DNA of 32,000 bases from Clostridia bacterium (GTDB taxonomy: Bacteria > Bacillota > Clostridia > HGM11514), in contig JAXGBA010000078.1 of the NCBI GenBank assembly GCA_034186235.1, positions 1 to 32,000 of the forward strand, written 5' to 3'. The notes beneath the pieces were generated by a model. It worked only from the letters and a program-made list of their open reading frames with translations. It was not told the origin of the DNA and did not search any database. Shown one piece after another: positions 12,328 to 32,000 of the stretch. Within the stretch, counting starts at the first letter, position 1. Each line of letters opens with the position of its first letter. The translations under genes were made by a program, and so were the position numbers.

Positions 12328-12330
12328 ATT

Positions 12331-14223: not shown

Positions 14224-14255
14224 ATCAATCTCTCCAAATCAAGTATTATATAGAA

Positions 14256-14284
14256 ATTATACACAATCCGCCTTTAGTTGTCAA
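14256..14284 (-). promoter_or_regulatory. consensus sigma-A promoter for the DUF1680-PPTase transcription unit
   Basis: On the minus strand: TTGACA (14284..14279), a 17-nt spacer, then TATAAT (14261..14256). GGAGAG RBS lies upstream of ATG 14223. Confidence 0.55.
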
Positions 14285-14309
14285 TATAAAATACAGCTGT
14301 TTTCGTATC

Positions 14310-14325
14310 GTGTAAATATTTTGCC
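14310..14325. promoter_or_regulatory. putative operator/activator site A (GTGTAAATATTTTGCC; core GTAAA-N3-TTT[A/G]C palindrome)
   Basis: Lies almost exactly midway between the two divergent -35 boxes (14284 and 14348). The 13-mer GTGTAAATATTTT recurs exactly at 16344..16356. Confidence 0.4.
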
Positions 14326-14347
14326 GTCCAAAAGTCAATTGTGTATA

Positions 14348-14376
14348 TTGACCTGAAAAAGTTTTTATAGTATAGT
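14348..14376 (+). promoter_or_regulatory. sigma-A-type promoter for the beta-helix gene
   Basis: TTGACC (14348..14353), a 17-nt spacer, then TATAGT (14371..14376). The -35 box is embedded in the inverted repeat GTCAAT-N7-ATTGAC (14334..14352). The region is AT-rich, so other -10-like hexamers exist. Confidence 0.45.
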
Positions 14377-14409
14377 ATGTATAATATATTATAATGAGGT
14401 AAACTGTAT

Positions 14410-16483: not shown

Positions 16484-17440
16484 TTGGCAAAAGAGGTAAC
16501 AAATGAACTTACATACATACCTAAAAAGCAGAGTGCGGCACTTATTTTCAAAAAGAATTGGATGCTCCTTGCACTGTGCGCACCGATGCTTGTTTATCTT
16601 GCAATTTTCCGTTACGGGCCGATGTTCGGTATCATATTGGCATTTAAGTCGTATGACTACCAGGGAGGTATCATCGGAAGTGACTGGACGGGTCTTTACA
16701 ACTTTGAGTTCTTCTTCCAGTCGGACAGTTTTACGATAGTTGTAAGAAACGCCCTTCTTTACAACATGGTAATGATATTCCTGGGTCTTATTGCGTCAAT
16801 CATGCTTGCGCTGCTGCTCTTTGAGCTTTCGGGCAGGATTGCTATCAGGGTTTATCAGACGCTTATGTTCATACCGCATCTTCTCTCATGGGTTGTTGTT
16901 GCGTACATGGTATACGCATTCTTAAGTCCTACACACGGTATGCTGGTAAGCATCTATAATTACTTCGGCCTCACATATACCGACTGGTATTCTGAGCCTA
17001 TGAAATGGATATTCATTCTGCCTATCGCCTCCATATGGAAAGGCTGCGGTATGAGTGCGCTTATCTATTATTCGTCACTCCTCGGTATCGACGCGGAATA
17101 CTTTGAAGCTGCATCGCTCGAAGGTGCAACAAGGCCTCAGATTGCAAAATATATAACGCTACCGTTCCTGTATCCTACCGTTACAATCCTTACGATTATG
17201 TCTATCGGTAAGATATTCAATGCGGATTTCGGTCTGTTCTATCAGCTGCCGAAAGGCTCACCGCTGATCAGGACCACTACGGATGTTATCGAAACCTACA
17301 CATACCGTGCATTCTATGAAGAAAGCAATATCGGGCAGTCATCTGCGGTAGGTTTGGTTCAGTCCTTGGTTGGCTTGGTGCTCGTTACGCTTACAAATGC
17401 CGTTGTTAAGTGGATCGACCCCGAAAGAGCATTGTATTAA
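16484..17440 (+). CDS. carbohydrate ABC transporter permease, LplB/YteP-like (MalF-type)
   Basis: ORF 16475..17440. The GTG at 16475 lies inside the AGGAGG RBS (16470..16475), so I prefer the in-frame TTG at 16484 (8-nt spacing). About six TM segments and the EAA loop EAASLEGATRPQIAKYITLPFL. Confidence 0.85.
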   Translation: MAKEVTNELTYIPKKQSAALIFKKNWMLLALCAPMLVYLAIFRYGPMFGIILAFKSYDYQGGIIGSDWTGLYNFEFFFQSDSFTIVVRNALLYNMVMIFLGLIASIMLALLLFELSGRIAIRVYQTLMFIPHLLSWVVVAYMVYAFLSPTHGMLVSIYNYFGLTYTDWYSEPMKWIFILPIASIWKGCGMSALIYYSSLLGIDAEYFEAASLEGATRPQIAKYITLPFLYPTVTILTIMSIGKIFNADFGLFYQLPKGSPLIRTTTDVIETYTYRAFYEESNIGQSSAVGLVQSLVGLVLVTLTNAVVKWIDPERALY

Positions 17441-17459
17441 GAAAGGACGGTGTTTGTAA

Positions 17460-18359
17460 ATGGCAGTTGTTAAAAGAAAAAGCGAAACTATCGCAAAGTT
17501 TTTTATACATATTTTCTTCTGTTTGCTTTCGGTAACATTTATTATACCGATCTGGTCGATTATTTCCATCTCGTTCATGAGTGAAGAAGAAATCATCCAG
17601 AGCGGTTACGCAATGATTCCGAAAGAACTGTGCCTCACTGCTTATAAGTATATTTTCAGCAGTACCGGTGCTATTATCAACGCTTATAAAGCAACAATTA
17701 TTACATCGGTTATGCAGTGCGTGCTGTTCCTCATCGTAGGTTCAATGTGCGCATACGCTATATCCCGTTCAGACTTCAAGTTCAGAGGACCTATTACATT
17801 CTTCATGTTCTTCACCATGCTGTTCGGCGGCGGTATGATTCCTTCTTACATACTTATCGCAAAGGTTATGAACCTTACCGATACTTATGCAGCACTGGTT
17901 TTTCCGTCAATTGGTAATGTATGGTCGATATTTATTATCCGAACATTCTTCCAGCAGTTGCCGGGCGCTATTATTGAGTCCGCAACTATTGACGGCGCAA
18001 GCGAATGGACGATTTTTACAAAGATTATTCTTCCGCTTTCGACGCCCGCACTTGCAACGATGGGACTTCTCGAGTTCCTCGGCGCATGGAACGCATGGAT
18101 GCCCTCAATGCTTTACCTTACAAGTAACGGTAAAGACAAGAGAACTCTGCAGTATCTGCTTCAGACGATGCTTCGTAACATTGACGAGCTGAAGAGAAAT
18201 CAGGAACAGACGGGTATGATTCTCGAAACAGCCAACACGCCTACAGAGAGTGCCCGTATGGCAATGGCGGTTGTTGCTGTCGGTCCCATTCTCCTTATAT
18301 TCCCGTTCTTCCAGAAGTATTTCGTACAAGGTCTTACGGTAGGTTCCGTAAAGGGTTGA
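17460..18359 (+). CDS. carbohydrate ABC transporter permease, LplC/YtcP-like (MalG-type)
   Basis: 299-aa ORF with multiple TM segments and the EAA loop ESATIDGASEWTIFTKIILPLSTPALAT. Confidence 0.85.
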   Translation: MAVVKRKSETIAKFFIHIFFCLLSVTFIIPIWSIISISFMSEEEIIQSGYAMIPKELCLTAYKYIFSSTGAIINAYKATIITSVMQCVLFLIVGSMCAYAISRSDFKFRGPITFFMFFTMLFGGGMIPSYILIAKVMNLTDTYAALVFPSIGNVWSIFIIRTFFQQLPGAIIESATIDGASEWTIFTKIILPLSTPALATMGLLEFLGAWNAWMPSMLYLTSNGKDKRTLQYLLQTMLRNIDELKRNQEQTGMILETANTPTESARMAMAVVAVGPILLIFPFFQKYFVQGLTVGSVKG

Positions 18360-18373
18360 TTTAAAGAAAATTT

Positions 18374-18409
18374 AAGGACACATAGCTTCATGCCGTGTGT
18401 CCTTTTCTT
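18374..18409 (+). terminator. candidate intrinsic terminator after the permease pair
   Basis: 9-bp stem AAGGACACA / TGTGTCCTT (18374..18382 and 18396..18404) with a 13-nt loop, followed by TTTTCTT. Confidence 0.5.
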
Positions 18410-18425
18410 AAAAGGTGATATAAAA

Positions 18426-18701
18426 ATGGGAAAAAATATCAGAAAACGCAATCTTAAACTCAATAGGGCGATTAAAATCACCGCTGCAATTATAGTATGG
18501 TTTGCTGTATTTTTGCTTATTAACCTCCTAACCAAAAGAAATCAGGCAAGCGGTTTGTCGGCAGACGTGACGGAAACCTATGTAATACTTGCTGTTTCGG
18601 CAATTATATCGCTGCTTGGGTTTGTTGCAACATTATATGCGGTGTTTTATTTTGAAAGGTTCTCTCTACAAAGGAGAAAGAAAAACAAAGATAAAAGATA
18701 A
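18426..18701 (+). CDS. small hypothetical membrane protein (2 predicted TM helices, basic termini)
   Basis: ORF 18390..18701 trimmed to ATG 18426 because codons 1-12 lie in the terminator hairpin and AAGGTGA precedes 18426. Predicted TM helices are ITAAIIVWFAVFLLINLL and YVILAVSAIISLLGFVATLYAVFYF. I recognise no family. Confidence 0.45.
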   Translation: MGKNIRKRNLKLNRAIKITAAIIVWFAVFLLINLLTKRNQASGLSADVTETYVILAVSAIISLLGFVATLYAVFYFERFSLQRRKKNKDKR

Positions 18702-18717
18702 TCGAAAGGATGCAGTT

Positions 18718-19764
18718 ATGGGCAACTTTAAAGCTTTTTTGAAACGCAAAGACATTGAATTTTCGCTTAAGCGCTACGGAATTGATGCTCTCGGAGCAAT
18801 GGCGCAGGGACTTTTCGCTTCACTTTTAATAGGAACAATTCTGTCTACGCTCGGTCAGCAGACAGGCTGGAAAATGCTTGTTGACATCGGCGACTTGGCA
18901 AAAACGGTACAGGGGCCGGCAATGGCTATAGCGATAGGATATGCGCTGAAATGTCCCCCGCTTGTTCTTTTCTCACTTGCAGCAGTCGGTGAAACTGCAA
19001 ACAAAATGGGCGGAGCCGGCGGCGCTTTCGCGGTTCTGATCATTACAATTGTTGCAGCAGAGCTTGGAAAGGCTGTCAGCAAGGAAACAAAGCTCGATAT
19101 TCTTGTAACGCCTGTTGTTACAATCTGCTCGGGCGCATTTCTTTCAATAACGATTGCCTCCTACATCGGAGCAGGTTCATCGCTTGTCGGTACATTTATA
19201 ATGTGGGCAACAGAGCTTCAGCCGTTCTGGATGGGTATAATTGTTTCGGTTGTTGTCGGGATTGCTCTTACTCTGCCGATTTCAAGCGCAGCCATATGCG
19301 CAGCGCTTTCACTTACAGGGCTTGCGGGCGGCGCCGCTTTGGCAGGCTGCTGCGCACAGATGATAGGCTTTGCCGTAATGAGCTTCAGGGAAAACAAATG
19401 GGGCGGACTTCTTGCGCAAGGCCTCGGCACAAGTATGCTGCAGATGGGCAACATTGTTAAGAATCCGAGAATATGGATTCCGCCGACGCTTGCTTCTGCA
19501 ATATGCGGTCCGATAGCAACCTGTATATTCCACCTTCGTATGGACGGCGCTCCGGTATCATCGGGCATGGGCACCTGCGGCCTTGTGGGGCAAATCGGCG
19601 TGTATACCGGCTGGATTGAAAAAGGCATAAACATCACTGCATTTAACTGGATAGGTTTAATTGCGGTTTCGTTTGTTCTTCCGGCTGTTCTTACATGGCT
19701 TTTCGGCCTTTTCTTCCGAAAAATCGGCTGGATTAAAGAAAACGACTTAAAACTGGATATATAA
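18718..19764 (+). CDS. PTS EIIC_2-family (PF13303-like) integral membrane permease, orphan
   Basis: ORF 18589..19764 trimmed to ATG 18718 (AAAGGA RBS 7 nt upstream). The N-terminus MGNFKAFLKRKDIEFSLKRYGIDALGAMAQGLFASLLIG and the SSGMGTCGLVGQ motif resemble this family from memory. The protein is polytopic. Confidence 0.6.
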   Translation: MGNFKAFLKRKDIEFSLKRYGIDALGAMAQGLFASLLIGTILSTLGQQTGWKMLVDIGDLAKTVQGPAMAIAIGYALKCPPLVLFSLAAVGETANKMGGAGGAFAVLIITIVAAELGKAVSKETKLDILVTPVVTICSGAFLSITIASYIGAGSSLVGTFIMWATELQPFWMGIIVSVVVGIALTLPISSAAICAALSLTGLAGGAALAGCCAQMIGFAVMSFRENKWGGLLAQGLGTSMLQMGNIVKNPRIWIPPTLASAICGPIATCIFHLRMDGAPVSSGMGTCGLVGQIGVYTGWIEKGINITAFNWIGLIAVSFVLPAVLTWLFGLFFRKIGWIKENDLKLDI

Positions 19765-19967: not shown

Positions 19968-20948
19968 TCATACACTCTTTTCCGCTGCCAATCCTGCTCC
20001 GATTGCAACACAGGATGCTGCGTCCTTTGCAACATATGCGGAAATACCGGTCGATTTCTCTATAAGTTCCGAGATACCGTTTAACAGACTTCCCCCTCCG
20101 GTCATAAGAATACCGTGCGTATTAATATCCGAAATAAGCTCCGGAGGGGTGCTTTCAAGCACGCACTTAACCGAATCGACAATCCTTTCCACACATGGCA
20201 TCAAAGCCTGTCTTACATCATTTGAAGTTATAACAAAGTTTTCCGGCAAACCGCTTAGCAGCCCAAGCCCGGAAACCCTCATTTCGCCTTCCGCATTTTC
20301 ATCAACGCTGCCGATTTTGATTTTTATATCTTCGGCGGTTCTGCTTCCGATTGTGACATTGTAATTTTTGCGCACATAGCGCCTGATCGCTTCATCAAAG
20401 CTGTCACCGGCACAGAAAACCGTGCTGTTCACTACAATGCCACCAAGTGAAATAACCGCAATATCGCTGCTTCCGCCGCCTATATCAATAACCATTCTTC
20501 CGCATGGCTTGTTGATGTCAATTCCTGCACCGATTGCCGCCGCAACCGGCTCTTTTATCAGCTTTACACGCCTTGCCCCGGCAGCTGATGCAGCGTCTGA
20601 CACCGCTCTCTTTTCAACCTCGGACGCAAGGCACGGAACGCATATAACCACCGATGGCTTCATGATGTGCCCGCCCTCGGCCTTTCTTATATAATGTTTC
20701 AGCATACGCTCAGTCATTGAAAAATCGGAAATAACACCGCTTCTGAGAGGCCTTACGGCATTGATGTTCTCGGGTGTCCTCCCGAGCATACCTCGTGCCT
20801 CTCCGCCAAACGCAACGGTTTTTCCCAAAGCGTCAACCGCTATAACAGACGGCTCCCTGATTACAATTCCCTTTCCCGAAACATACACCAAAACAGAAGC
20901 GGTACCAAGGTCAATCCCGATATTTTTGGAAATAATATTAGCCAACAC
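19968..20948 (-). CDS. mreB: MreB/Mbl-family actin-like cell shape protein (stand-alone paralogue, no mreCD)
   Basis: The 328-aa ORF has NIGIDLGTASVLVY (phosphate 1), VIDIGGGSSDIAV (phosphate 2) and ILMTGGGSLLNG (adenosine) motifs. The track start, GTG 20954, abuts the GAGAGG RBS. GTG 20948 or TTG 20945 are better spaced, so the start is uncertain by a few codons. Confidence 0.9.
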   Translation of the reverse strand: MLANIISKNIGIDLGTASVLVYVSGKGIVIREPSVIAVDALGKTVAFGGEARGMLGRTPENINAVRPLRSGVISDFSMTERMLKHYIRKAEGGHIMKPSVVICVPCLASEVEKRAVSDAASAAGARRVKLIKEPVAAAIGAGIDINKPCGRMVIDIGGGSSDIAVISLGGIVVNSTVFCAGDSFDEAIRRYVRKNYNVTIGSRTAEDIKIKIGSVDENAEGEMRVSGLGLLSGLPENFVITSNDVRQALMPCVERIVDSVKCVLESTPPELISDINTHGILMTGGGSLLNGISELIEKSTGISAYVAKDAASCVAIGAGLAAEKSV

Positions 20949-20989
20949 GCTCACCTCTCGACTGACATTATTTCCCGAAAACGCCTGTT

Positions 20990-21199
20990 TTATTCTATTG
21001 AAAAATCCTCAGGCGTAAAATTTTTCTCCTTAGGCTTTCTCATGCGTTTGGGCTGTATTCTGAGATAATTAAGGTCAAATTTCGGACATGTGTGTTCCGG
21101 CGGAACAATCCCCTCAAATTCGCACAGAATATCATCGGTAACCCTGATAAGCGTCGCATGATTGCAAAGCGCACAAATGCTGCGATATTCATCACTCAC
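20990..21199 (-). CDS. small Cys-rich hypothetical protein (CxxC-N13-C-N11-C, basic C-terminal tail)
   Basis: ORF 20990..21241 trimmed. ATG 21241 has no RBS and lies inside the predicted -10 region. In-frame GTG 21199 is preceded by AAGGAG at 8-nt spacing. The 69-aa product is xSDEYRSICALCNHATLIRVTDDILCEFEGIVPPEHTCPKF...KRMRKPKEK. I recognise no family. Confidence 0.45.
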   Translation of the reverse strand: MSDEYRSICALCNHATLIRVTDDILCEFEGIVPPEHTCPKFDLNYLRIQPKRMRKPKEKNFTPEDFSIE

Positions 21200-21231
21200 C
21201 GCAATCACTCCTTCAAAATTGATATATGTAT

Positions 21232-21260: not shown

Positions 21261-21301
21261 GCAATTTGCATATATTGTTATCAGAAAGGCAGTGAAGCTT
21301 G

Positions 21302-21607
21302 ATGAACAGCATTTTTCAGATATTGCTTCTGCTGTTTGCGCTGTACGGAATTGCAAGCATTCTGTGGGAGCTGAATGATAGTTTTTTTAAACAGAAAAAC
21401 CGGAATACCGTTTCATATTTTGCTTTCATGCCGCTTGGGGATGTTGAAAGCATAGAACACGAAATCCGCAGCTGTATCGACTACGCCGAGCAAATGAACT
21501 GCGAACCGGTGATAATCGAAGGCGAAAGCTGGAACAGCGAAAAAAAGCGCATAGCGGAAATAATAGCAAACGAAAGCGATATTAAAATCGTACATAAGAA
21601 AACTTAA
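21302..21607 (+). CDS. hypothetical protein with an N-terminal membrane anchor
   Basis: 101-aa ORF from ATG 21302 (the track starts at TTG 21299). It has an N-terminal hydrophobic helix IFQILLLLFALYGIASILW and then a soluble domain of about 75 aa. The RBS is weak. I recognise no family. Confidence 0.4.
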   Translation: MNSIFQILLLLFALYGIASILWELNDSFFKQKNRNTVSYFAFMPLGDVESIEHEIRSCIDYAEQMNCEPVIIEGESWNSEKKRIAEIIANESDIKIVHKKT

Positions 21608-21628
21608 CGGTCTGAATTTTAATTGCAT

Positions 21629-21667
21629 AAAATCACCCGCCGGATTTGAAATCCGACGGGTGATTTT
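21629..21667. terminator. bidirectional intrinsic terminator between ORF 21302..21607 (+) and the giant SLH gene (-)
   Basis: 17-bp stem with one mismatch: AAAATCACCCGCCGGAT (21629..21645) pairs with ATCCGACGGGTGATTTT (21651..21667). The loop is 5 nt. A/T runs on both sides give a U-tract in either direction. Confidence 0.7.
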
Positions 21668-21675
21668 TTATCATT

Positions 21676-24600
21676 TTACCTTTCTAAAAGCCTTTGAAGT
21701 ATTGCCGCTGCCTCCGCACGGGTTGCGGTTGCTTTGGGGTCAAGAGTGGTCTCGGTTCTGCCGACCATTATTTTTGATGCCGCAGTCCACTTAAGCGCCG
21801 GAACTGCATATTCCGAAATATCGTCAAAGTCGGAATATACGGATATATCAAAGTTCTCGCCTGCGCTTACATCCATACCCTTAAAGCCTGCAAACCTGTG
21901 CATAATCGCCGCAATCTGCTCTCTTGTTATAAGATCGTCGGGGGCAAACTCGGTTTCGGAATAACCGCTTACTATGCCGTTTTCAGCTGCCCATGCAACT
22001 GCATCCTTATAGTATGCGCCATCCGCAATATCCTCAAATCCCGAAGGCTTGGAGGCGCTCGGCTCGCCCTCTGACCTGTAAAGAACCGTTACAAGCATAG
22101 CACGTGTAAGGTTTTTGTCCGGCCCGAACAGCGTATCGGTTATGCCCTTAAAGAGGTTGTTGTCGTAAACATACGCAACATTATCGAAGAACCAATCCGA
22201 TTCGACAACATCCGTAAACGGAAGCCTTGATTTTTCCGCAAACACCGCCTGCACCTCAATATCCTTGTCAATTGCTTTAATAGTGTACGGAGATGTTCTG
22301 CCGACCGACATACCGTTTATCAGCAAATCTGCAATAACATAGCCTTCATCGGGCGTTGCGGTAACGGTAACGGAGGTTCCGCCCAAGGCTCTTTCACTCG
22401 AAACGGTAACCTTACCGTGTTCGCTCTCCAGAACCGTAACTTTATAGTATCTTGCGCTTCCGCTGCCCGATGGCGAGCCGCCGCTCGGTCTGTCGCCCTT
22501 TTTGAAGAGCGCAATTGCTTCGGTCAGATCCGAAACGGAATCGGTGTAATCCTTATCGGTAGAGGATGAATTATTAAGCACCGTCTTTGCCTTTTCGATT
22601 GCTTTTGAAAGCGCATTCTTTCTGCCCTCGGAAGCGTTCGGCTCAGACGCCAGCACACCTTCCGCTTCTGCGATTTTCGCTTCAAGGTCGTCTTTTGTAT
22701 TGCCGCCGACCTCAATTACCACATTGTCCGAAACACCTGCAGAAATTATCTGACCGTCCTCGGTTTCGACATCCGTTGTTGAAACTTTTGCTTTAACCGC
22801 CGTTTCGCCCGGGATAAGCGCAGTCAGTTTACCGCCCTCGAATGATACGATATTTTTTGCGTACATGATATTCCAATCAACATCGTCTTCATCTGCGGTA
22901 TATGTTGAACCGTTCGCCGTCAAAAGTGCGGTAAGGTCAATGCTCTGACCGTTTCTTATGCTTATTTTCTTGATACCGTTTGAATCGGCATCAACAGATT
23001 TTCCGCCATTTTGTATTTCGATTCCCGAAATTGCAGCACTGCCACCCTTTATGACGGTTACGACAAGTTCGGTTTCGTTTCCTGCACGGTCAGCGGCTTT
23101 CAGCCTGTGAACAACGCTCATTTTGCCATCGGGAAGGGTTTTTGAGATTGTAAAGCTGCCGTTGTTTGAAATATTTATGCCGTCGGATGAACCGTCAATT
23201 GTGAGAACTGCCGAATTTTCGGTCATGCCTTCAATCACATATGCGCCGGAGTCATCCGCCGTTATTACATTTGCGCCTATCGCAACGGCTGCGGACGGGT
23301 CTTCGATGCTTGCGGCGGTATTTCTTGTAAGCGACAGAACCGGAAGCGATGTGTCAACCGTAAAGCCGAGCTGCGCATTTTCAACATCGGACGCATCAGA
23401 GCCTGTTATATGGTCTTTATTGTCGGCATATGCGGTGAAGTCGATTATATAATCTCCGTCCTCCAGATTGTCAAGCACAAACTTCCAGTCGGTTTTGAAT
23501 TTATTGTCACTGTACGCTTTAAGCCCGTTCACGGAAAGCTCAACAAATGCCGGTTCGCTGAAAGTATATTCAACCGTCACGCTGTCCTGACTGATAAATT
23601 CCTTAGTTGTATCAAAGTTGGTTTTAACCGACAAAAGCTTAGGTGTTTTCGGGCTCGGGAGCGTAAGAATATTTGAATCAACATATCCGTCACCGTAATA
23701 ATAAAGCGTTTTGCTTTCATCTTTCGGGTCAGCCGTCTCTCTAAGCGTTTTTATACGCACTAAGTAGTTTTTGCCGACCTCAAGGTTTGCCTCTTTTCCG
23801 AACACGAAGTTGCTGCCCATTGCAAACTGACCGTACGCATTATCAAGGATTTTGCCGTCCTCGGAAATAATTTCGGCAAGATAATGTGTGTAATCGGCAT
23901 TTTCAGGATCGGTTGCCGATACGAATATTCCGCCGTTTCCGCCGTAAGCAATATGAACTGACGAAACGCTCTTGGGAAGCTTCGGATTTTTGAATGTGAT
24001 CGGCGTTTTATCTATCGCAAGGCTTATTCCATCGGTTGCGGAAACGGTTGCAACCATATAATATGTGCCGGACGGGAACGAATCCGGAATTGTAATATTC
24101 TCCGTGCCCGACTTTATATCCACACCGTCTTTATGAAGAATATTTATACCGAGTGCGTTGCCGCTGTTCCTGGACGCTTTGATTTTATCAAGAACCTCCG
24201 GGTCCTCCGTAAGATAAACATCAACGCAGCCCTTTTCGTGAGCCTTGCCGGATACGCTAAGGTTTGCCGATATATCAAACGATTCATTCGAAGCGTGCGA
24301 TGCGGAAACGCCTGTAAGCTCCGCAATATCGTCAACCGCATTCATCGAGAAAGTTTTAATCTCAATATTTTCGGTTGTATATTTAACCTTCCATTCTCCG
24401 TTTGCAATTGCTTTTTTATCTGTAACGGTTACATATATGTAATTTCCGTCATCGCGGTTCTGAACAACCATGTTTCCGCCGCCGTTGCCGTCATCGGGAG
24501 TTGTTTCGATTTCAATTCCGTCTTTAGGACTTATAACGGTTATCTCGCCCGCCTTGGGAGTTCCCGCACCGGTGTACGGAATCTCAAGCAGGAGTGCGTC

Positions 24601-27600
24601 CTGCCCGTCTGCACCGTTGGTTTTTACAATAGCCTCTTTTACGTTTTCGGGTGCCGCAAGGCTCACAACGCTTAGCGCACGGATATTTGTCCCGTAAAGT
24701 GCCGTTCCTTCATCGGCGCTGCCTAAATCTTTGCCGCTGCGGCTCGGTGCGCTGAGGTCGATGTTCTTACCGAAGGAAACCTTTTCGCCCCAGTAATAAA
24801 TAACACCGAATTTAATTCCTATTATCTTGATGTTGGCGCCTATAAATTCATGGGACGCCGCTGCCTCAACCCCGGCAAGTTCCTTGCCGCCGACAAACGG
24901 TATACTGTCGGGTATGCACAGCGAAGCATAGATGTAACCGTAGAAATAGTCGTCCGCTATATTTACGGTTATACCGCCCTTTATCAGCCCGTCAATAATA
25001 TTTATGCTGCCGTAAAGGTTCAGTTCCCACGGTTCAATCCACCGTGCCTGTATGCCCGCCTGCAGATTGAGAATTCCTTTTGCATATTTGATATTCATAT
25101 CGCCCGTAAGCGACAGCCCCTCAAGGCTGATTCTGGCGTTGAAGTCGCCCGTAAGCACCCCGATTGCCTCCAGTCTTGTGAAAAGAAGAAGCGTTACCGG
25201 AGGAAGCTTATCAAAACTGCCGCCTATTGAATCCGCCAGATCGTTGATTCCGCCGCCGAGGCCTGTCATAAAAAGAACGGGGGGCGCAAGAGGAATCTTC
25301 AAACCGTCACGGATATAAAACTCAATTTTATCGGGGAGAATCTTATCCTTGCCTTTAAGCTTAACCTGTTTGAATGCAAGAACGCCCTCGCACTCGATTA
25401 CCTTAATGTTAAGACCTGCGTTTATCTCATACACATTCTCGATTGTGTTGATTGTAACCGACGCATATATTCCCGGTGCATTTGAAACTAGAGAACCGAG
25501 AAGGTCTTTCGGGAGGCCGAGAGAGAACTTTGCATCGATGCCTATATATCCCTTATCGTCTTCAACCTCAACCTTGCCGTCCTTAACTTCTCCGCGTTCT
25601 CCAAAGAGAATATTATTGATTTCCGCCGAGAGTTCGCCTTCGGAAAGTTTGGTATCCTTTGAAATCTTTGTTTTTTCATCGGATGTCGGCTGCGGAGTTT
25701 CATCAAACATCTGATTGAAGGTATCGGAATAATCATCGGGGTCGCTGTCATCAAAAAGATTGTTCATTTCCATCGAAATATCTTCCTGGTCGGCAGTCAG
25801 ATCCCTTTGCGGCGTTTCCTCGGTTTTGGGCGCCTTTATAGGAAGGCTTATCGAACCGCCGAAGCCTATGCCGTATGTAACAATGCCGTCGCCGTCCTCA
25901 TACCAGCTTGAACTCATTTCGCCGAACTTAAGGTCGATAAGGAAACCGCCTATCATCTGAATCATCGTTGCCGCCCCGTCGAGAGAAAGCGTAAGAGTTG
26001 CCGGCTCAAGCTTAAGCGCAGACGCATCCTGGAATCTTTCAGTATCAAGAGTTGTTGCAACGCCCTTATTAACGGTAAAATTCCACTTGCTGCGCCACAC
26101 ATTTATAGAGTTTACAACTTTTAAAAGCCCGTCGCCCTTAACTGTATAAGCGCCGTTTTTCTCGTAAATTTCAAGCGGTTTATCGCCCTCGTATGAGAGT
26201 ATATTGTTTATGATTATATCGCCGTCGCCAAATTCCGCCTGCCAGTATCTTTCGCCGCTTTCACGCTTCATTTCTCGGATACCGCCGCGGATATTGAGTA
26301 TAACCTCGGCATCTGCGATTGCGTTCTTGTCCTTGCCGAAATCAAACTTGAATTTTTCGCCGCGTATTTCGCCTGTTTTTTCAAGTTTGCCGCTGTAGAA
26401 CTGTTTATATTCGCCCTCGTTTGCAAAAGTGAAAAATTCATAATCGGTAGCGTTGTTTTTCGTCATTCTGACAAGCGCAATCGTTCCGTAGGATTTCAGC
26501 TTATACTTTTCATCCGCCGAAACGGTAAGCGTTGCCTTTGCGGTTATGGATTTTCCGAACTCCGCAACAAGGTCCTTATCGGAAAATGCAAACACAAGGC
26601 TGTACTCTCCGACTTCAAGTTCTTCCTTGGTGGTAAAACTCAAATTCTGATATTCCTCGTCCATGAACGCAATGTTCTTTTTCTCGATAAGCACGCTGTG
26701 ACCGCTCGTTTTGTGCTTGAGCCTTAAATCCCAGCCCTGATTGCCCGAAAGCGCCTTGAACGGCTTCATCGAACCTGAAACCGTAATAGCCTTTTCGCCG
26801 CCGGTCCATACAATCTCAGGATTTACTTTGGTTATATGTACCTCTGCAATTTTGCCGCTTACAGAGCGGAGAATAACGCTGTCCTCTCCTGCGGTTTCAA
26901 CCGTTTTCTGCGTTCCGTCGGCAAGATTTGCCGTTGCGGTGAGCGACGCATAAACCGTACCTGCTGTGAGGTCCGTCTGCGGTTTTGCACGAAGCCTGAA
27001 TTGCCTTGTTATAACTTCTTTGCCGATTTCATTTATAGTTACAATCGAACCGATACCGCCGACAATCTCGAAAAACTTTTCGTCAACAGTCAGATTAAGC
27101 TGTGCAGAGGTGAGCAAAACGGCAGCATCCCCCGAATTATCAATTTCAACAGTAACATCAAATTCGCCGCCGTTCTTGTAAGCGTTTCCGCTTTCGTCAA
27201 GCTCAACCCTACCGCAAACGATGTTGAGGCCTATATCGCTCTCATTATCGTTTGTGAAATTTCCGACGCCGTAAAGCGATTCCGCAGAAAAGTTTCCGCC
27301 GTTCGGAACAGCCTTTTTCTCCCAGTATACCGCAACTGCGCTGTCGGGAGTTTTATACGCATTGGAATAATTGGTAAAATCACAGTATTCGTCGGGATTG
27401 TAGTCAAATCTTGTATTCGCAAGATTCGCCCAGTGACCGACGATTACGGAGGAAGGTTCAATTCCGCCGCTCCAGCCCTTGGTTATAACATATGCCAGCT
27501 TTGAGGGATTGGAAAGAGAATCCACGCACCTAAGCTGCTGCGGAACCTCATCCCCGGAAAACTTTTTTTCTGTCATGGTCGGAACAATATCGGTATCTAC

Positions 27601-28161
27601 AACCACATACGGTGCGTCGGTATCGTTTCCGAGTGCGGTATCGAGCATAAGGCGGATACTTATATCGGAAGTCTTACCGCTTTCGTTTGAAACCTCAAAC
27701 GAAAAACCAGCATTTCCGAGAGTATCGGTGTTTTCGTCCGTGCCGAGCGCAACCTTCATTTTTACGGTTACGCCGTTAATAGTCCACGGAACGGTTAAAA
27801 GTCTGCCCTCCTCGGAAACAACGGGTGTTCCAAGAATGGAGTTCAGCCCGAAAAATCCGTAATCCTGCCCGAAAACATAATCCTTATCGTCTATACGGAC
27901 GGAAACGAAGGAAGTTCCGTTGCTGCGCGCCTTATCCTCGCTATAAAGCAGAGGAATATTATTATCAAGCGACTTTTTGGGGTTACCCTCGGCGGTTTCG
28001 ATAGCAAAACCGCCGGTATCTGCGTGGAAGGTATATGTAAGATACCCGTTTGAAATACTGTAAATATTCTGCTCCTCGGCACCGGCAATGCACGGTGTTA
28101 AAACGCCGATAAGCATCGAAAACACAAGCACATAGGAAATCAGTTTCTTAAAAATATTCAT
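21676..28161 (-). CDS. giant secreted, SLH-anchored cell-surface protein (2161 aa)
   Basis: Uninterrupted 6.5-kb ORF with a GGGGAGGA RBS upstream of ATG 28161 and a Sec signal peptide. From the C-terminus by my count: three SLH repeats (21679..22230); an InlB-B-repeat-like module YYKVTVLESEHGKVTV... (22231..22455); a Gly/Ser/Pro linker (22456..22497); a helical FIVAR-like module (22498..22701); a Big_2-like Ig module (22702..23034). Further upstream are FN3/Ig-like modules and large unassigned regions. Confidence 0.85.
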   Translation of the reverse strand: MNIFKKLISYVLVFSMLIGVLTPCIAGAEEQNIYSISNGYLTYTFHADTGGFAIETAEGNPKKSLDNNIPLLYSEDKARSNGTSFVSVRIDDKDYVFGQDYGFFGLNSILGTPVVSEEGRLLTVPWTINGVTVKMKVALGTDENTDTLGNAGFSFEVSNESGKTSDISIRLMLDTALGNDTDAPYVVVDTDIVPTMTEKKFSGDEVPQQLRCVDSLSNPSKLAYVITKGWSGGIEPSSVIVGHWANLANTRFDYNPDEYCDFTNYSNAYKTPDSAVAVYWEKKAVPNGGNFSAESLYGVGNFTNDNESDIGLNIVCGRVELDESGNAYKNGGEFDVTVEIDNSGDAAVLLTSAQLNLTVDEKFFEIVGGIGSIVTINEIGKEVITRQFRLRAKPQTDLTAGTVYASLTATANLADGTQKTVETAGEDSVILRSVSGKIAEVHITKVNPEIVWTGGEKAITVSGSMKPFKALSGNQGWDLRLKHKTSGHSVLIEKKNIAFMDEEYQNLSFTTKEELEVGEYSLVFAFSDKDLVAEFGKSITAKATLTVSADEKYKLKSYGTIALVRMTKNNATDYEFFTFANEGEYKQFYSGKLEKTGEIRGEKFKFDFGKDKNAIADAEVILNIRGGIREMKRESGERYWQAEFGDGDIIINNILSYEGDKPLEIYEKNGAYTVKGDGLLKVVNSINVWRSKWNFTVNKGVATTLDTERFQDASALKLEPATLTLSLDGAATMIQMIGGFLIDLKFGEMSSSWYEDGDGIVTYGIGFGGSISLPIKAPKTEETPQRDLTADQEDISMEMNNLFDDSDPDDYSDTFNQMFDETPQPTSDEKTKISKDTKLSEGELSAEINNILFGERGEVKDGKVEVEDDKGYIGIDAKFSLGLPKDLLGSLVSNAPGIYASVTINTIENVYEINAGLNIKVIECEGVLAFKQVKLKGKDKILPDKIEFYIRDGLKIPLAPPVLFMTGLGGGINDLADSIGGSFDKLPPVTLLLFTRLEAIGVLTGDFNARISLEGLSLTGDMNIKYAKGILNLQAGIQARWIEPWELNLYGSINIIDGLIKGGITVNIADDYFYGYIYASLCIPDSIPFVGGKELAGVEAAASHEFIGANIKIIGIKFGVIYYWGEKVSFGKNIDLSAPSRSGKDLGSADEGTALYGTNIRALSVVSLAAPENVKEAIVKTNGADGQDALLLEIPYTGAGTPKAGEITVISPKDGIEIETTPDDGNGGGNMVVQNRDDGNYIYVTVTDKKAIANGEWKVKYTTENIEIKTFSMNAVDDIAELTGVSASHASNESFDISANLSVSGKAHEKGCVDVYLTEDPEVLDKIKASRNSGNALGINILHKDGVDIKSGTENITIPDSFPSGTYYMVATVSATDGISLAIDKTPITFKNPKLPKSVSSVHIAYGGNGGIFVSATDPENADYTHYLAEIISEDGKILDNAYGQFAMGSNFVFGKEANLEVGKNYLVRIKTLRETADPKDESKTLYYYGDGYVDSNILTLPSPKTPKLLSVKTNFDTTKEFISQDSVTVEYTFSEPAFVELSVNGLKAYSDNKFKTDWKFVLDNLEDGDYIIDFTAYADNKDHITGSDASDVENAQLGFTVDTSLPVLSLTRNTAASIEDPSAAVAIGANVITADDSGAYVIEGMTENSAVLTIDGSSDGINISNNGSFTISKTLPDGKMSVVHRLKAADRAGNETELVVTVIKGGSAAISGIEIQNGGKSVDADSNGIKKISIRNGQSIDLTALLTANGSTYTADEDDVDWNIMYAKNIVSFEGGKLTALIPGETAVKAKVSTTDVETEDGQIISAGVSDNVVIEVGGNTKDDLEAKIAEAEGVLASEPNASEGRKNALSKAIEKAKTVLNNSSSTDKDYTDSVSDLTEAIALFKKGDRPSGGSPSGSGSARYYKVTVLESEHGKVTVSSERALGGTSVTVTATPDEGYVIADLLINGMSVGRTSPYTIKAIDKDIEVQAVFAEKSRLPFTDVVESDWFFDNVAYVYDNNLFKGITDTLFGPDKNLTRAMLVTVLYRSEGEPSASKPSGFEDIADGAYYKDAVAWAAENGIVSGYSETEFAPDDLITREQIAAIMHRFAGFKGMDVSAGENFDISVYSDFDDISEYAVPALKWTAASKIMVGRTETTLDPKATATRAEAAAILQRLLER
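21679..22230 (-). other. three tandem S-layer homology (SLH) domains (cell-wall anchoring region of the 2161-aa protein)
   Basis: FTDVVESDWFFDNVAYVYDNNLFKGITDTLFGPDKNLTRAMLVTVLYR; FEDIADGAYYKDAVAWAAENGIVSGYSETEFAPDDLITREQIAAIMHRF; FDDISEYAVPALKWTAASKIMVGRTETTLDPKATATRAEAAAILQRLL. Each shows the SLH pattern with a T-R-A/E-(E/Q)-x-A helix. Confidence 0.8.
28078..28161 (-). other. Sec-type signal peptide of the 2161-aa protein
   Basis: MNIFKKLISYVLVFSMLIGVLTPCIAGA|EE has a basic n-region, a hydrophobic core and an AxA-like cleavage site. Confidence 0.7.
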
Positions 28162-28175
28162 ATCCGTCCTCCCCG

Positions 28176-31100
28176 TTAGTTAAGTACATAAACCTGAAGC
28201 GTAATATAATCACGCTTGTCGGTCTGGATAAAGAATGTATACCAGCCCGTTTCAAGACCGCCTATTTCAAATTCGCCGTTTTGGTTCTTTGAAATCATCG
28301 TGCCGGAACGCTTCATCTGACCCATTGTTTTTACGCCCTTCTGATAGCGGACATAAGCTGTTGATGTCGGCGAGAAGTTTTTAAGCGCAATCTTTATGCT
28401 GTCACCGCTGACCTCACTTCTTCCGGCAGCATCCGGAAGCTTCCCGTTTACCGTTGCCGCAACATCATAAAGTCCAACCAGGCGAACCGTTCTTTTAACC
28501 TTGGTTACATTATGAGCGTTATCTGTCACCTCATAGGTTATAACATATGAAATACTTCTGTCAAACTTGTTGTTTTCGATGTTGTCGGGGTCAAATCCGC
28601 CCCAATCCGTTACCGTAACGGCATTTGTAAGGTCATATCCACCGCCGAACCTATCGTATGCGCGGAAGGCCTCACCCGGCTTTGTGAGCATATCCTTACT
28701 GTAAGACTCGCCCATTCCGGGGTTTTCATAGAACACAAGTTCCTCTTTGCCGAGAAGGTCAATCACCGGAGGCTCCTTGTCGATAACCTCAATATCCACC
28801 GCATACGAATCGGAAAGCTGATTGTTTTTCTGCATATTGAATATATACATTCCGTTATCGGTATAGGTTTTTTCGTTGGTTTTTGAATAATCGCCGCTTC
28901 CGCCTGCGGGGCGTGTGTCGGCATCGGTTATAACGGTAACCGTAACATCATTCCCCGTAACGGGATTTGCTTCGTAAATATCTCCGGCCTTGGTCGAAAC
29001 CCTGAAGCCTGCCTCGTCTCCGGGCTTGTGGCTTCCGATGTGGGGTTTGGTTACCCATGCGCCGTTTTCGAGCACATCATAATCATAACTCCATCTCACC
29101 TCGGTAATCTTCGGAGCGGCAGAGTCTATTTCGCTGACCTTAACCGTAAGATAAGAGCAGATTCCCTCATCGTCAAACACCTTAAATGTGTAAACACCGT
29201 TTTTGTAGAAAGTAAATTCAGCAACATCCGCCTTGTACTGAATGCCGCCGTAAAGGACATTCACATCAGCAAGGCTGCGCCTTTTATCGATTTCGTTCCC
29301 CGATGTATCAAGCGCCTTTTTGAACTTGATTTTCACTTCGGTTTTATGTTCGTCCGGGAAAAGCTCTGCCGAAAGTGCCGGAGGAGTTTTATCGATATTC
29401 GATACCGTTACGACATCAGTAACCGCATTTCCTCCCTCATCAACAAACTTAATGCCGAGAGAACCGCTTTCCGCAAAGGTTATTGTCGATGTTCCGTAAT
29501 CAATCGAATACTGCGAAGCGTCGGTTATACCGCTTACCGGCTCAACCTCAATAATTTTAACATTCGGCTTTGAGAATTTGAGCGTAACGCTTACGCTTTT
29601 TGAAGTAACCGTATCCGGGTCAACACTGTATACGGTATCTATAATTTCGGGCGCTTCGGTATCGATGTTATCAATATGGAAATTCTTGGTTGTTTTGTTT
29701 CCGACTTTATCGTAAAGCGTAATGCCGTACGAACCGTTTTCGGGAAGCTCACCCGTAAATTCGGTACCATTTTCGGTAAGAGGAATATCCTTTCCGCCTG
29801 CCGCTTTCAGCGTAACCGTTCCTACACCGCTGCCCTCATCGGAGGCGGTAATTGTAATTCCGACCGGCTTATTCGTTGTAAGCGTTGTTGCCAGCTTATA
29901 CGAAATCTCGCCCGGGATTATATCAAAGTTTGCCGCCGAAATCTCTTTCGATGCCGTATAACCGTACATATCCTTCATATTAAATGTGAACGAAGGCTCA
30001 TAGCTGTCTATTATTTTTTCGGTTTTTCCGCCGTTGTTTGTTATTCGAAGGCCTCTCTCCTCCGCCCTGTCGGTCAGGTTTACAACAGCTTTTATACGCT
30101 TGTAATATACCCCGTCCGCATTAATGTCGGCAATCTCCTTCCAGTCTCCCTTTTCATCTTCATAGAAATAAGAAACGGTATAATCCTTGTCGGCGCCTTC
30201 CTCAATCGGAGTTTTGTTTATGCATTTGACCATCTTGTAGTCATCTCCGTCAAAAAGCGCGTACTCCGTTCCGAAGCCTTCAAGTCTCTGAACCGCTCCC
30301 CAGGAAACCGCACCTGTCTGCGAACTGCACCTAAGAGCGGATATCCATGAATTATCGGTAAAGGTGTATATAACCTTTTTAACACCGTACTCGTCACCGT
30401 CACTGATGAAATCGATCTTAACCGGGTAACCGCCGGAGCTCATATCATGGCTCCACGGATTTTCGTCATAATCGATTAAGTTGCCTTCGGCGTCGTGCAT
30501 CGGAATATTAATTGCAACGGGGGCATCGGTCCCATCGCCATAATATCCGCCGAGATTGATCGATTCTATACCGGATTCCGGATCCTGAATGGTAACCACG
30601 AAAGTTACATCGCCGATTGTCGGATTTACGCCTATAATGTCCTCATATTCATCGAAAACAAATATTTCGGGATTAATTTCAACCTTGACAACCGGAGGAG
30701 TGTTATCAATATTATCCGCAACAAGCTCGCAAACGCTCCAAGAATCTTTGTCAGCGTTACCTGCCTCGAAACTGTATACACTCACGGCTCTTTCCATAAT
30801 ATTAAGGTATTCACCGCTGTCAAGAATGAGCGGATATACGGAATAAACAAGCTTTGTGTATCCGCCGCCGGCTTCATCATACTCGGATTGTTCCTCATTA
30901 AGGAACAACCCCTGATTGTTTGCCTCCTGATCGTCATAAGGCATCACTCTAAGAGAGCTTTCCGATGGCGTAATAACCAGCGTAACCTCCCCGCCCTCGG
31001 GCGACAGCATTTGATTTTCGGGAACATCGGAACCGTTGAACTGTCTTTTGATATTTGCCTTTCCGGTGACGCCGAACTCAACATCGTTTATATCGATATT

Positions 31101-32000
31101 AACCGCCTTTGCTCTGCCTATATTGTCAACAGTGTAAAGAGTGTAGCTGCCGTTTTTATTTATTGCAAAGCTGTAGTCCTGCGAATATGTGCCGGCATAG
31201 CCTGCCGCAATCGAAAGATTTGTTTCTTCAAGTGTAAGCTCGTTTTCGGTATCCGGGACAGTCGTAACCTTATCCGCAGGAAGCACATATACCGGAACAT
31301 TGAAATTCACTCCTACAATCGACTTTTTATCAGCCTTCTTAGGGAAAGCTTCCGCCGATTTTGCGGTAATTTCCGCATCAGTTGTGCTTAATGTTTCTCC
31401 GAGAACAACATCGCGTGTGTTTCCGAGAGAATCTGTAAGTCTTAACCCTATACGGAAGCTTCCCGTTGTTCCGAAAATCTTCACATTATATGTGTAATTG
31501 TTGTCGCCGTCGAAACTTCCGGCGCTGCTTGCCGTTTCGTATGCCGAAACGCTGTCGCTGTTATATTCAAAGTATGTATCCTTGATTTTGCCGCCCGAAA
31601 GCGCCGATGCCGCCTCCGCTTCGGGAATAATCGCAAACGAAATACCGTCGGGCGCCGCTTCATTTATCTTTATGCTTGCTTCGCAGTCGACCCTTTCGCC
31701 GCTCGGCTTTTGCGTAACCGAAACAGTTTCCGCCGTCGGCGCCTCGCGGTCAATTCCGTTTATAACAAGCGGAACCTCGGTAAAGTTTCCGGCAGCGTCC
31801 GTAATTTCCAGAACGGTATTTGTGTTCTGCGTCGCAGTAACGCTGTAAGCGTCCTCTCCGTTTTCGATTTTAACCGAAGAATCTTCGCAGGTAACCGTCA
31901 TACCATCCGTGTTATCGTCCGATACATAAAGCTTGCCCGAAATATTTTCGGTTGTGTGTTCATCGTTCATAATAAGCCTTGCGCTCGGTGCTGTATCGTC
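28176..32000 (-). CDS. giant multi-Ig-module surface protein, C-terminal 1275 codons (5' end beyond the right window edge)
   Basis: The track ORF starts at ATG 31970, but the frame stays open to base 32000. My translation of 32000..31971 is DDTAPSARLI, which carries the same DxxAPx module-boundary motif seen six times inside the ORF. There is no signal peptide at M31970 and only a weak RBS, so the gene very probably starts outside the window. The stop is 14 nt upstream of the SLH gene start. Confidence 0.8.
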   Translation of the reverse strand, partial: DDTAPSARLIMNDEHTTENISGKLYVSDDNTDGMTVTCEDSSVKIENGEDAYSVTATQNTNTVLEITDAAGNFTEVPLVINGIDREAPTAETVSVTQKPSGERVDCEASIKINEAAPDGISFAIIPEAEAASALSGGKIKDTYFEYNSDSVSAYETASSAGSFDGDNNYTYNVKIFGTTGSFRIGLRLTDSLGNTRDVVLGETLSTTDAEITAKSAEAFPKKADKKSIVGVNFNVPVYVLPADKVTTVPDTENELTLEETNLSIAAGYAGTYSQDYSFAINKNGSYTLYTVDNIGRAKAVNIDINDVEFGVTGKANIKRQFNGSDVPENQMLSPEGGEVTLVITPSESSLRVMPYDDQEANNQGLFLNEEQSEYDEAGGGYTKLVYSVYPLILDSGEYLNIMERAVSVYSFEAGNADKDSWSVCELVADNIDNTPPVVKVEINPEIFVFDEYEDIIGVNPTIGDVTFVVTIQDPESGIESINLGGYYGDGTDAPVAINIPMHDAEGNLIDYDENPWSHDMSSGGYPVKIDFISDGDEYGVKKVIYTFTDNSWISALRCSSQTGAVSWGAVQRLEGFGTEYALFDGDDYKMVKCINKTPIEEGADKDYTVSYFYEDEKGDWKEIADINADGVYYKRIKAVVNLTDRAEERGLRITNNGGKTEKIIDSYEPSFTFNMKDMYGYTASKEISAANFDIIPGEISYKLATTLTTNKPVGITITASDEGSGVGTVTLKAAGGKDIPLTENGTEFTGELPENGSYGITLYDKVGNKTTKNFHIDNIDTEAPEIIDTVYSVDPDTVTSKSVSVTLKFSKPNVKIIEVEPVSGITDASQYSIDYGTSTITFAESGSLGIKFVDEGGNAVTDVVTVSNIDKTPPALSAELFPDEHKTEVKIKFKKALDTSGNEIDKRRSLADVNVLYGGIQYKADVAEFTFYKNGVYTFKVFDDEGICSYLTVKVSEIDSAAPKITEVRWSYDYDVLENGAWVTKPHIGSHKPGDEAGFRVSTKAGDIYEANPVTGNDVTVTVITDADTRPAGGSGDYSKTNEKTYTDNGMYIFNMQKNNQLSDSYAVDIEVIDKEPPVIDLLGKEELVFYENPGMGESYSKDMLTKPGEAFRAYDRFGGGYDLTNAVTVTDWGGFDPDNIENNKFDRSISYVITYEVTDNAHNVTKVKRTVRLVGLYDVAATVNGKLPDAAGRSEVSGDSIKIALKNFSPTSTAYVRYQKGVKTMGQMKRSGTMISKNQNGEFEIGGLETGWYTFFIQTDKRDYITLQVYVLN
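28473..28787 (-). other. DUF5011-like Ig domain near the C-terminus of the upstream giant protein
   Basis: VIDKEPPVIDLLGKEELVFYENPG...AFRAYDRFGGGYDLTNAVTVTDWGGFDPDN...YVITYEVTDNAHNVTKVKRTVRLVG follows the D-x-x-P-P-x-I ... Y.D.G..A.D ... DLT..V.V ... Y.I.Y.V.D..GN ... R.V.V pattern of that family. This is recognised by eye only. Confidence 0.45.

Follow-up and report, generated by a model that had tools for sequence, protein, structure and literature searches.

The logic by which bacteria anchor large surface proteins is already known from SLH domains, cohesin-dockerin pairs, and immunoglobulin (Ig)-module surface proteins. In cellulosomes, anchoring involves a type I or type II dockerin on the scaffoldin and a cohesin-SLH protein, such as SdbA, OlpB, or Orf2p of C. 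thermocellum. The SlpA protein of C. difficile is matured at the cell surface by the wall-anchored cysteine protease Cwp84. Here, we describe a pair of adjacent genes, A and B, that encode giant surface proteins in a 32,000-nucleotide stretch of Clostridia bacterium DNA (assembly GCA_034186235.1, contig JAXGBA010000078.1, positions 1 to 32,000; the window). We found no description of this pair in the literature, the family databases, or among solved structures. The same is true of its fused and split anchor forms, the PLAT head of A, and the barrel-like core of B.

We favor, at roughly even chances, the interpretation that A and B are two subunits of a conserved but unnamed surface complex of monoderm Firmicutes, which would act as a two-piece adhesin or capture device. 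Both proteins are Sec-secreted, acidic, multidomain proteins of ~250 kDa, and all-β, as predicted by modeling in the case of B. More than 80% of their nearly 4500 residues lie outside described families, yet Firmicutes of gut, rumen, and soil carry the pair widely, under strong constraint on its order, length, and module content. It occurs in human-gut Clostridia, including Hadza and Nepali metagenome-assembled genomes (MAGs), and probably forms one of the largest surface structures of these bacteria. Given its size and its presence in the gut, it may play a part when these bacteria attach to food particles, mucus, or other cells.

The order of A and B is conserved

Full-length homologues of B, down to ~32% identity, were found in Clostridia, Lutispora, and Paenibacillus. 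B-related loci were gathered by a scan of one genome per species, which gave 72, and neighbor clustering covered 77 loci. In 73 of the 74 loci that have DNA upstream of B, the gene directly 5′ of it and on its strand is an A homologue, with A-B gaps of −4 to ~100 nucleotides (nt). Three further loci begin inside B at a contig edge and fall outside the 74 scored. The same arrangement recurs in all three of the more distant relatives (L078, L079, and L080; ~28 to 33% identity), drawn from a Lachnospiraceae MAG, Bacilliculturomica massiliensis, and a Joint Genome Institute (JGI) metagenome. The A protein of L078 aligns with the A family to its very C-terminus (hhalign probability 98.8). From gut Clostridia to Paenibacillus, the order of A before B is practically unchanged, and the flanking genes vary at every locus.

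The lone exception, locus L066, holds an N-terminally truncated remnant of B. This second B-like open reading frame (ORF) of an Oscillospiraceae MAG (L066:1588-5574) starts at the equivalent of residue ~237, behind murA and a gene of the metallo-β-lactamase fold. It has no A upstream and is probably a decaying paralogue.

The wider B family is large. An exhaustive phmmer search with residues 1 to 1200 returned, for clustering at 50% identity, 1112 clusters with a threshold of E ≤ 1e-3, 670 with 1e-10, and 206 with 1e-30. Many cluster members are 2000 to 2800 amino acids (aa) long and collinear with B over residues 1 to 1140 at 27 to 34% identity. The source names inspected for these homologues are “hypothetical protein” or generic labels (SLH, dockerin, YDG), and one JGI sequence is labeled “trimeric autotransporter adhesin.” An exact-sequence look-up of B itself found no database record.

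A and B form one operon

The minus strand from 21676 to 32000 is filled by A and B. A first-pass annotation of the window had described two co-directional ORFs, the upstream one still open at base 32000, separated by a 14-nt gap with a strong ribosome-binding site for the second; it also made conservation of the pair as neighbors in related genomes a condition of its reading. The former can be read directly from the sequence and its coordinates, and the latter holds across the loci described above. The A stop codon TAA (28178-28176) and the B ATG (28161) flank the gap, within which the ribosome-binding site GGGGAGGA (28174-28167) stands 5 nt ahead of the ATG. No terminator is present in the spacer. 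Gene A runs past the window edge, since the ten codons between its first ATG (31970) and base 32000 are free of stops.

An intrinsic terminator follows B (Table 1). It was read by eye and then folded, a scan for consensus promoters and terminators having missed it. The fold has a free energy of −28.2 kcal/mol (z −8.6), and none of 200 shuffled sequences folded as well. The strength of this terminator, placed just past the B stop, means that the operon ends with B. The upstream boundary is visible in locus L006 (Hadza gut MAG contig CAKSKB010000008.1), whose DNA is 90.4% identical across the whole 10.3 kb. Here, a TetR-family gene lies 33 nt 5′ of A and is preceded by a terminator after lspA, and the operon of the lineage is therefore tetR-A-B. 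A and B are thus one operon, which in the window's lineage consists of tetR-A-B and then the terminator. Tandem or direct DNA repeats are absent from 21600-32000.

Table 1. Features of the A-B operon in the window. Residue numbers refer to protein B unless stated otherwise.
Feature	Position	Strand	Basis or remark
Gene A, 3′ part	28176..32000	-	C-terminal 1274 aa and stop; ORF open at base 32000
Most conserved part of A, last ~600 aa	28179..29978	-	Candidate B-binding end
A-B spacer, 14 nt	28162..28175	-	Read from sequence
Gene B, complete	21676..28161	-	2161 aa, ~238 kDa, acidic
B signal peptide, residues 1-29 (...IAGA/EE)	28075..28161	-	Sole hydrophobic 19-mer in B (residues 3-29)
N-terminal supersandwich, residues ~30-300	27262..28074	-	AF2 pLDDT mostly 70-90; Foldseek
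Several β-sandwich (Ig-like) domains, residues ~310-734	25960..27234	-	AF2 pLDDT 70-92; no Pfam match
Barrel-like sheet, predicted ~21-strand antiparallel meander, residues 735-1140	24742..25959	-	AF2
Acidic disordered loop in barrel-like domain, residues 778-840	25642-25830	-	AF2 model
C-terminal half of core, residues 1141-1800	22762..24741	-	Contains single DRAGN / VDTSLP Ig-type motif
FIVAR-like helical module, residues 1823-1884	22510..22695	-	Pfam E 7.9e-5, below gathering score
Divergent InlB B-repeat (Flg_new_2), residues 1906-1977	22231..22446	-	Pfam E 7.6e-10
Three SLH domains, residues ~1980-2161, wall anchor	21679..22224	-	Pfam SLH E 7.9e-29, 3 stretches
Intrinsic terminator	21627..21667	-	18-bp hairpin then UUUUAU, ~9 nt past B stop

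The wall anchor acts through B

B begins with a signal peptide and ends in three SLH domains (Table 1), which is the architecture that had been assigned to it from the letters alone. The signal peptide is modeled as a helix over residues 2 to 26 by AlphaFold2 (AF2). The SLH region is the sole part of B with a match to a solved structure in sequence and profile searches of the PDB, where the B family profile matched the SLH structures of B. anthracis Sap (3pyw and 6bt4; E 2e-19 to 8e-20). Neither A nor B carries a sortase signal (LPxTG and hydrophobic tail), and Pfam finds no dockerin in the window's B.

In 27 of the 77 loci, the anchor is instead split off. A further gene, C, lies directly 3′ of B in these loci, often with a 4-nt overlap, and B, at 1896-2100 aa, is short and has a type I dockerin as its C-terminal domain (Pfam PF00404; E 8e-9 to 1.6e-4). 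The product of gene C has a signal peptide, a cohesin, a FIVAR-like helix, a Flg_new_2 domain (InlB B-repeat), and three SLH domains. Its cohesin is matched by Pfam in 5 of 10 members (best E 9e-7) and aligns with the PDB cohesins 1g1k and 2vn5 at E 0.003.

The last ~360 residues of the window's B are collinear with C past its cohesin (E 3e-59 and 4e-62), and the FIVAR-like module marks the start of this homologous part, which also contains the Flg_new_2 domain of C. As this tail corresponds to C minus the cohesin, the window's B joins its core to the anchor protein in one chain and has lost the dockerin-cohesin pair. Gene C and its cognate cohesin are absent from the window, where the terminator follows B directly. 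The distant B proteins likewise have SLH or a dockerin at their C-terminus. Thus, wall anchoring acts via B, either as a fusion or through a dockerin and the adjacent cohesin-SLH gene, and never via A.

Between the signal peptide and the anchor tail, B matches no known family. Residues 30 to 1822 have no Pfam or NCBIfam match, and residues 1141 to 1830 have none even at E 0.1. Pfam, NCBIfam, and PDB sequence searches matched no glycoside hydrolase (GH) family in B, and no RHS/YD repeats or Tc family domains were found by Pfam or NCBIfam in the window proteins. In all PDB searches taken together, SLH, cohesin, and PLAT were the only matches. Since the window part of A also has no significant Pfam match, the initial impression that long stretches of both proteins belong to no recognizable family is borne out.

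Protein A is anchorless and starts with a PLAT domain

A word-indexed search with the window's A gave three unrelated matches, and a profile of its C-terminus gave only fragments. Full-length A homologues were therefore taken from the related loci. In L006, A is ~2303 aa long; the window holds its last 1274 residues (91.8% protein identity), corresponding to L006 A residues 1035-2308 in ORF numbering, and the window edge cuts off the remaining ~3.1 kb at the 5′ end. Full-length A, in L006 and its relatives, begins with a signal peptide and a PLAT domain, continues with Ig-like modules that have diverged, and closes with a conserved region of ~600 aa.

The PLAT domain spans the N-terminal ~110 aa. 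A profile of 20 full-length A proteins matched the C-terminal, membrane-binding PLAT domain of clostridial alpha-toxin (PDB 1olp and 1ca1) at E 1.4e-7 and lipoxygenase PLAT domains at E 1.4e-4. Pfam recognizes PLAT in 6 of the 20 full-length homologues (best E 8e-9); it is below threshold in L006, the closest relative, and the domain lies outside the window. The Ig-like modules of A homologues give weak matches to Pfam Big_13, Big_3_2, and Bact_surface_Ig-like, as well as to R28.

The window part of A has no SLH, dockerin, LPxTG with transmembrane segment, or hydrophobic segment. In a diverse set of 20 full-length A proteins, no SLH domain, dockerin, sortase signal, or other anchor was found, and the signal peptide is the sole hydrophobic segment of L006 A. 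The missing N-terminus of the window's A would therefore carry no anchor of its own, and the earlier description of A as anchorless, made from its C-terminal part, extends over the full length.

Conservation within A climbs to 0.49-0.61 in the last 600 aa, which end in an invariant ...GQMK...GWYT.Y.QTDKRDY...VY motif. This C-terminal region is retained in the short A of locus L056 and in the distant A of L078.

We rejected a module-end signature, xDxAGN...V..ID, that the first-pass annotation had described as shared by the two proteins. BLASTP of A against B gave a best E of 0.69. The clean form of the motif (DxAGN...VD/ID..P) is present at five or six sites in A but at a single one in B (residue 1691). 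DxAGN / ID..P motifs are widespread in bacterial Ig-like domains; the signature is generic, and A and B are without significant sequence similarity.

Predicted folds of the B core

We modeled B residues 1 to 1200 with AF2 from a 61-sequence alignment. The model is all-β, with a mean confidence (pLDDT) of 73. Residues 30 to 300 matched supersandwich accessory domains with a Foldseek probability of 1.0 over ~300 columns, namely the N-terminal domains of GH94 cellobiose phosphorylase and cyclic glucan synthase, and those of GH38 mannosidases, GH116, and OpgG/OpgD. This is also the most conserved block of B (0.64-0.68), with many invariant polar and aromatic residues. The matches of the B supersandwich are to the accessory-type fold alone; the catalytic domain and catalytic residues of glycoside hydrolases that contain such a domain (GH94, GH38, GH116, and GH186) were not found.

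A second conservation peak (0.66) lies at residues 900 to 1100, within a predicted sheet spanning residues 735 to 1140. The AF2 model of this domain has a pLDDT of 74.7 (~90 or above in the last ~150 residues) and a pTM of 0.59. Its top Foldseek matches in the PDB are all meander β-barrels (FimD/PapC, VDAC/Tom40, LptD, AlgE, and porins), at marginal significance (E 8.7e-4 and weaker; template-modeling score, TM, 0.25-0.40). The strands show a two-residue periodicity, with an aliphatic face of hydropathy +1.86 opposite a polar or small-residue face of −0.98. We read this model as a large curved or barrel-like sheet, a likeness of fold and not homology. At TM values under 0.1, the Foldseek matches of the whole model to teneurin, ApoB100, and usher proteins were not taken as evidence of homology.

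The C-terminal half of the core (residues 1141 to 1800) is collinear in all homologues. Weak Big_2, Big_6, Big_13, and Glucodextran_B matches in these homologues suggest that it is probably a run of β-sandwich domains.

Genes beside the pair

Only three gene families recur beside A-B among the 77 loci: gene C (27 loci), a C11 peptidase (26 loci), and TetR (17 loci). No other flanking regulator or carbohydrate-active enzyme (CAZyme) gene is conserved across lineages.

The C11 (clostripain-family) peptidase gene lies directly 5′ of A (e.g., L002:1458-3143). Its product combines a signal peptide with two SLH-like repeats and contains the catalytic motifs WDHGxG and FDACLMG. In Paenibacillus, Ca. 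Flemingiibacterium, and Sedimentibacter, the peptidase gene occurs together with the A-B-C cassette; no such gene adjoins the pair in the window's lineage. In the distant Lachnospiraceae locus, an S8 subtilase gene lies 3′ of B (L078:18438-19520). These adjacent peptidases suggest that the pair may undergo proteolytic maturation at the surface. The wall-bound C11 peptidase, the cohesin-dockerin variant, the PLAT domain of A, and the supersandwich and barrel-like domains of B all go beyond what the first-pass annotation had seen.

The TetR gene is found in the gut Clostridia lineage. Regulators of the MalT type (WHD_MalT/TPR_MalT/GerE) adjoin the pair in L079 and L080, with TetR or AraC-type regulators elsewhere, and regulation thus seems to have been rewired between lineages. 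In L006, an extra 2.4-kb gene directly after B (16610-18838) encodes a 743-aa protein with a Cro/C1-type helix-turn-helix and a dynamin-family GTPase. The window does not have this gene, which points to a strain-level insertion or deletion beside the operon.

CAZyme genes near the pair include GH53, GH43, PL8, and GH3 in related loci and GH123 and GH127-like genes in the window. The latter belong to a glycan-related cluster at 10239-16239, ~5-11 kb past the B 3′ end and beyond mreB, comprising GH123 (+), GH127-like (−), and a right-handed β-helix/NosD-like protein (+). Two ABC permease genes and a phosphotransferase-system EIIC_2 gene follow. The genes of this cluster are not kept beside the pair in other loci.

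Closer to B, its 3′ end is followed by a small convergent ORF, mreB, and housekeeping genes. The convergent ORF (21299-21607, +) encodes 102 aa with an N-terminal hydrophobic segment and has no family match (Pfam E above 0.05). The B terminator hairpin, which faces it, could act as a bidirectional terminator. A Cys-rich ORF of ~66 aa (VSDEYRSICALCNH...CPKFD...; ~21000-21205, −), read by eye only, has an AAGGAG-like ribosome-binding site and lies between the B terminator region and mreB (19968-20954), just 5′ of the latter.

A two-piece surface complex and its alternatives

If A and B are subunits of one complex, A would be held non-covalently on B through its C-terminal ~600 aa, giving a wall-rooted assembly of ~35-40 β domains. 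The distal end of this assembly would be formed by the PLAT domain of A, which resembles the part of alpha-toxin that binds membranes and might itself bind lipid or another hydrophobic surface. The supersandwich of B might in turn bind a ligand, as such domains usually contact glycan in glycosidases. The likeliest role of the pair would then be binding, in the manner of a large two-piece adhesin or capture device, rather than that of an enzyme or an S-layer lattice. The first-pass annotation had already proposed that the SLH protein tethers its partner to the wall. The conserved unit, the lack of an anchor in A, and the anchor acting via B all favor that proposal; the argument from a shared signature falls away.

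Several points weigh against this interpretation. Physical binding of A to B is inferred from synteny and from the anchorless state of A. In the B proteins of two rumen Clostridia loci (L004 and L027), both a detectable anchor and gene C are absent, and the complex in these lineages would therefore not be wall-bound. Neighboring CAZyme genes vary by locus. The length of A is near-constant (2160-2540 aa) and its modules are individually conserved, unlike in variable-length stalk adhesins; together with the lack of DNA repeats, this hints at a more specific machine. A simple adhesin model also leaves the aliphatic-faced, barrel-like domain of B unexplained, and the fold matches are weak (pLDDT ~73-75, TM at most 0.4). 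The constant modules of A and the aliphatic-faced sheet of B lead us to keep more unusual readings open.

One such reading, which we consider improbable, is a membrane-targeting machine, in which PLAT docks on a foreign membrane or on the cell's own, and the amphipathic sheet of B binds lipid or inserts. Such a machine would serve in attack on contact, in the capture of vesicles or lipid, or in moving lipid through the thick wall. For the PLAT domain of A, the nearest match is indeed the domain with which clostridial alpha-toxin binds membranes in a Ca-dependent manner. In B, the central domain has matches to membrane β-barrels only (and, more weakly, to ApoB100); it is one of the two most conserved parts of the protein, and its strands have one strongly aliphatic face. 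The pair is under a TetR repressor in the window's lineage, and repressors of this family often respond to small hydrophobic molecules. However, Paenibacillus and typical Clostridia are monoderm, and the hosts of the pair have no β-barrel assembly machinery (BAM). No sequence match to a toxin or lipid-transfer family was found, and the carriers are gut commensals and soil saprophytes. At its low TM, moreover, the sheet may not close into a barrel, and alternating hydrophobicity is equally expected in a buried sandwich core. The more specific version, in which the central domain of B is a lipid-facing β-barrel or belt that, with the PLAT domain of A, grips or perforates membranes or extracts lipid from them, be they those of foreign cells and vesicles or of the producer itself, is slightly less probable again. 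If true, it would represent a membrane-active, single-chain, large β-barrel in bacteria without an outer membrane or BAM. In any case, an aliphatic-faced, barrel-like domain such as the one predicted here is a structural oddity for monoderm bacteria, unexpected where there is no outer membrane.

We give the same low likelihood to a cellulosome-like scaffold, that is, a wall-anchored platform, made of A, B, or both, that organizes polysaccharide-degrading enzymes or binds glycans of plants or the host for uptake. The cohesin-dockerin-SLH anchoring resembles that of cellulosome anchoring scaffoldins, the carriers degrade polysaccharides and often have CAZyme genes near the pair, the N-terminal fold of B is typical of glycosidase accessory domains, and one distant B contains a CBM_X2 domain. 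Yet neither A nor B has a cohesin, so that enzymes would lack a docking site. The window proteins also have no catalytic CAZyme domain or recognized carbohydrate-binding module, and the flanking CAZymes are not conserved among loci.

Still less likely, A and B might be two independent adhesins that are neighbors without forming an assembly, with A secreted free or bound in some other way. They have no sequence similarity or recognizable interaction module, and anchorless variants of B exist. Nevertheless, order, strand, and spacing are kept in 73 of 74 loci and in relatives of ~28% identity, across two classes, while the flanks all change. In operon evolution, such linkage is typical of interacting subunits. 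Finally, a non-canonical S-layer or sheath, with a lattice of A and B processed by a wall-bound protease as SlpA is by Cwp84, is very unlikely: SLH anchoring, the adjacent wall-bound cysteine peptidase in 26 loci, and two co-expressed partners of conserved length would fit it, but A and B are ~2-5 times the size of typical S-layer proteins, the regulator is a TetR-type repressor instead of a strong constitutive promoter, and the anchor is missing in some lineages.

Comparison with known systems

The preferred interpretation, a two-subunit surface complex, shares parts with several known systems and differs from each. The N-terminal ~110 aa of A resemble the C-terminal PLAT domain of alpha-toxin, but A has no phospholipase domain, and its PLAT instead heads a 2300-aa Ig-module protein.

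The C11 peptidase loci recall the maturation of SlpA by Cwp84, in that a gene for a cysteine peptidase with a signal peptide and SLH-like repeats precedes A in 26 related loci. The peptidase is of family C11 rather than C1A, however, the anchor is SLH rather than CWB2, and cleavage of the A-B pair is putative.

Tethers of the OmpM/SlpA type (PDB 8BYM and 8AGD) have N-terminal SLH, a coiled-coil stalk, and a C-terminal 16-stranded outer-membrane barrel, and occur in diderm Firmicutes and Deinococcus (PMC10628300). B similarly joins SLH to a large antiparallel meander β domain, and 8agd is among its weak fold matches. In contrast to OmpM, the SLH domains of B are C-terminal and dispensable, its barrel-like domain lies inside a core of ~1800 aa, and its hosts have no outer membrane; OmpM (8BYM) aligns to B through the SLH domain only.

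Like the giant Ig adhesins (Ebh, SasG/Aap, and Rib/R28), A and B are huge, secreted, acidic, rich in β-sandwiches, and wall-attached, and the modules of A bear the DxAGN / ID..P motif. Unlike these adhesins, the A-B system is encoded by two genes and places the anchor, SLH or dockerin instead of LPXTG, on the partner B rather than on the repeat protein. Furthermore, A has no near-identical tandem repeats, and its length and module order are conserved.

The anchoring of cellulosomes, with the cohesin structures 1g1k, 2vn5, and 4ums, offers a further close parallel. As in cellulosomes, 27 related loci tether a huge secreted protein, B, by a dockerin and a cohesin-SLH protein encoded by the next gene. 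The window's B, on the other hand, has neither dockerin nor cohesin and is tethered by covalent fusion. B also carries no enzymes and differs from scaffoldins with their multiple cohesins; a single cohesin is dedicated to each dockerin, and the system is found in non-cellulosomal genera such as Paenibacillus. The split and fused forms together indicate that a peptide bond can take the place of a cohesin-dockerin pair, and they provide a clean example of cohesin-dockerin anchoring outside the cellulosome.

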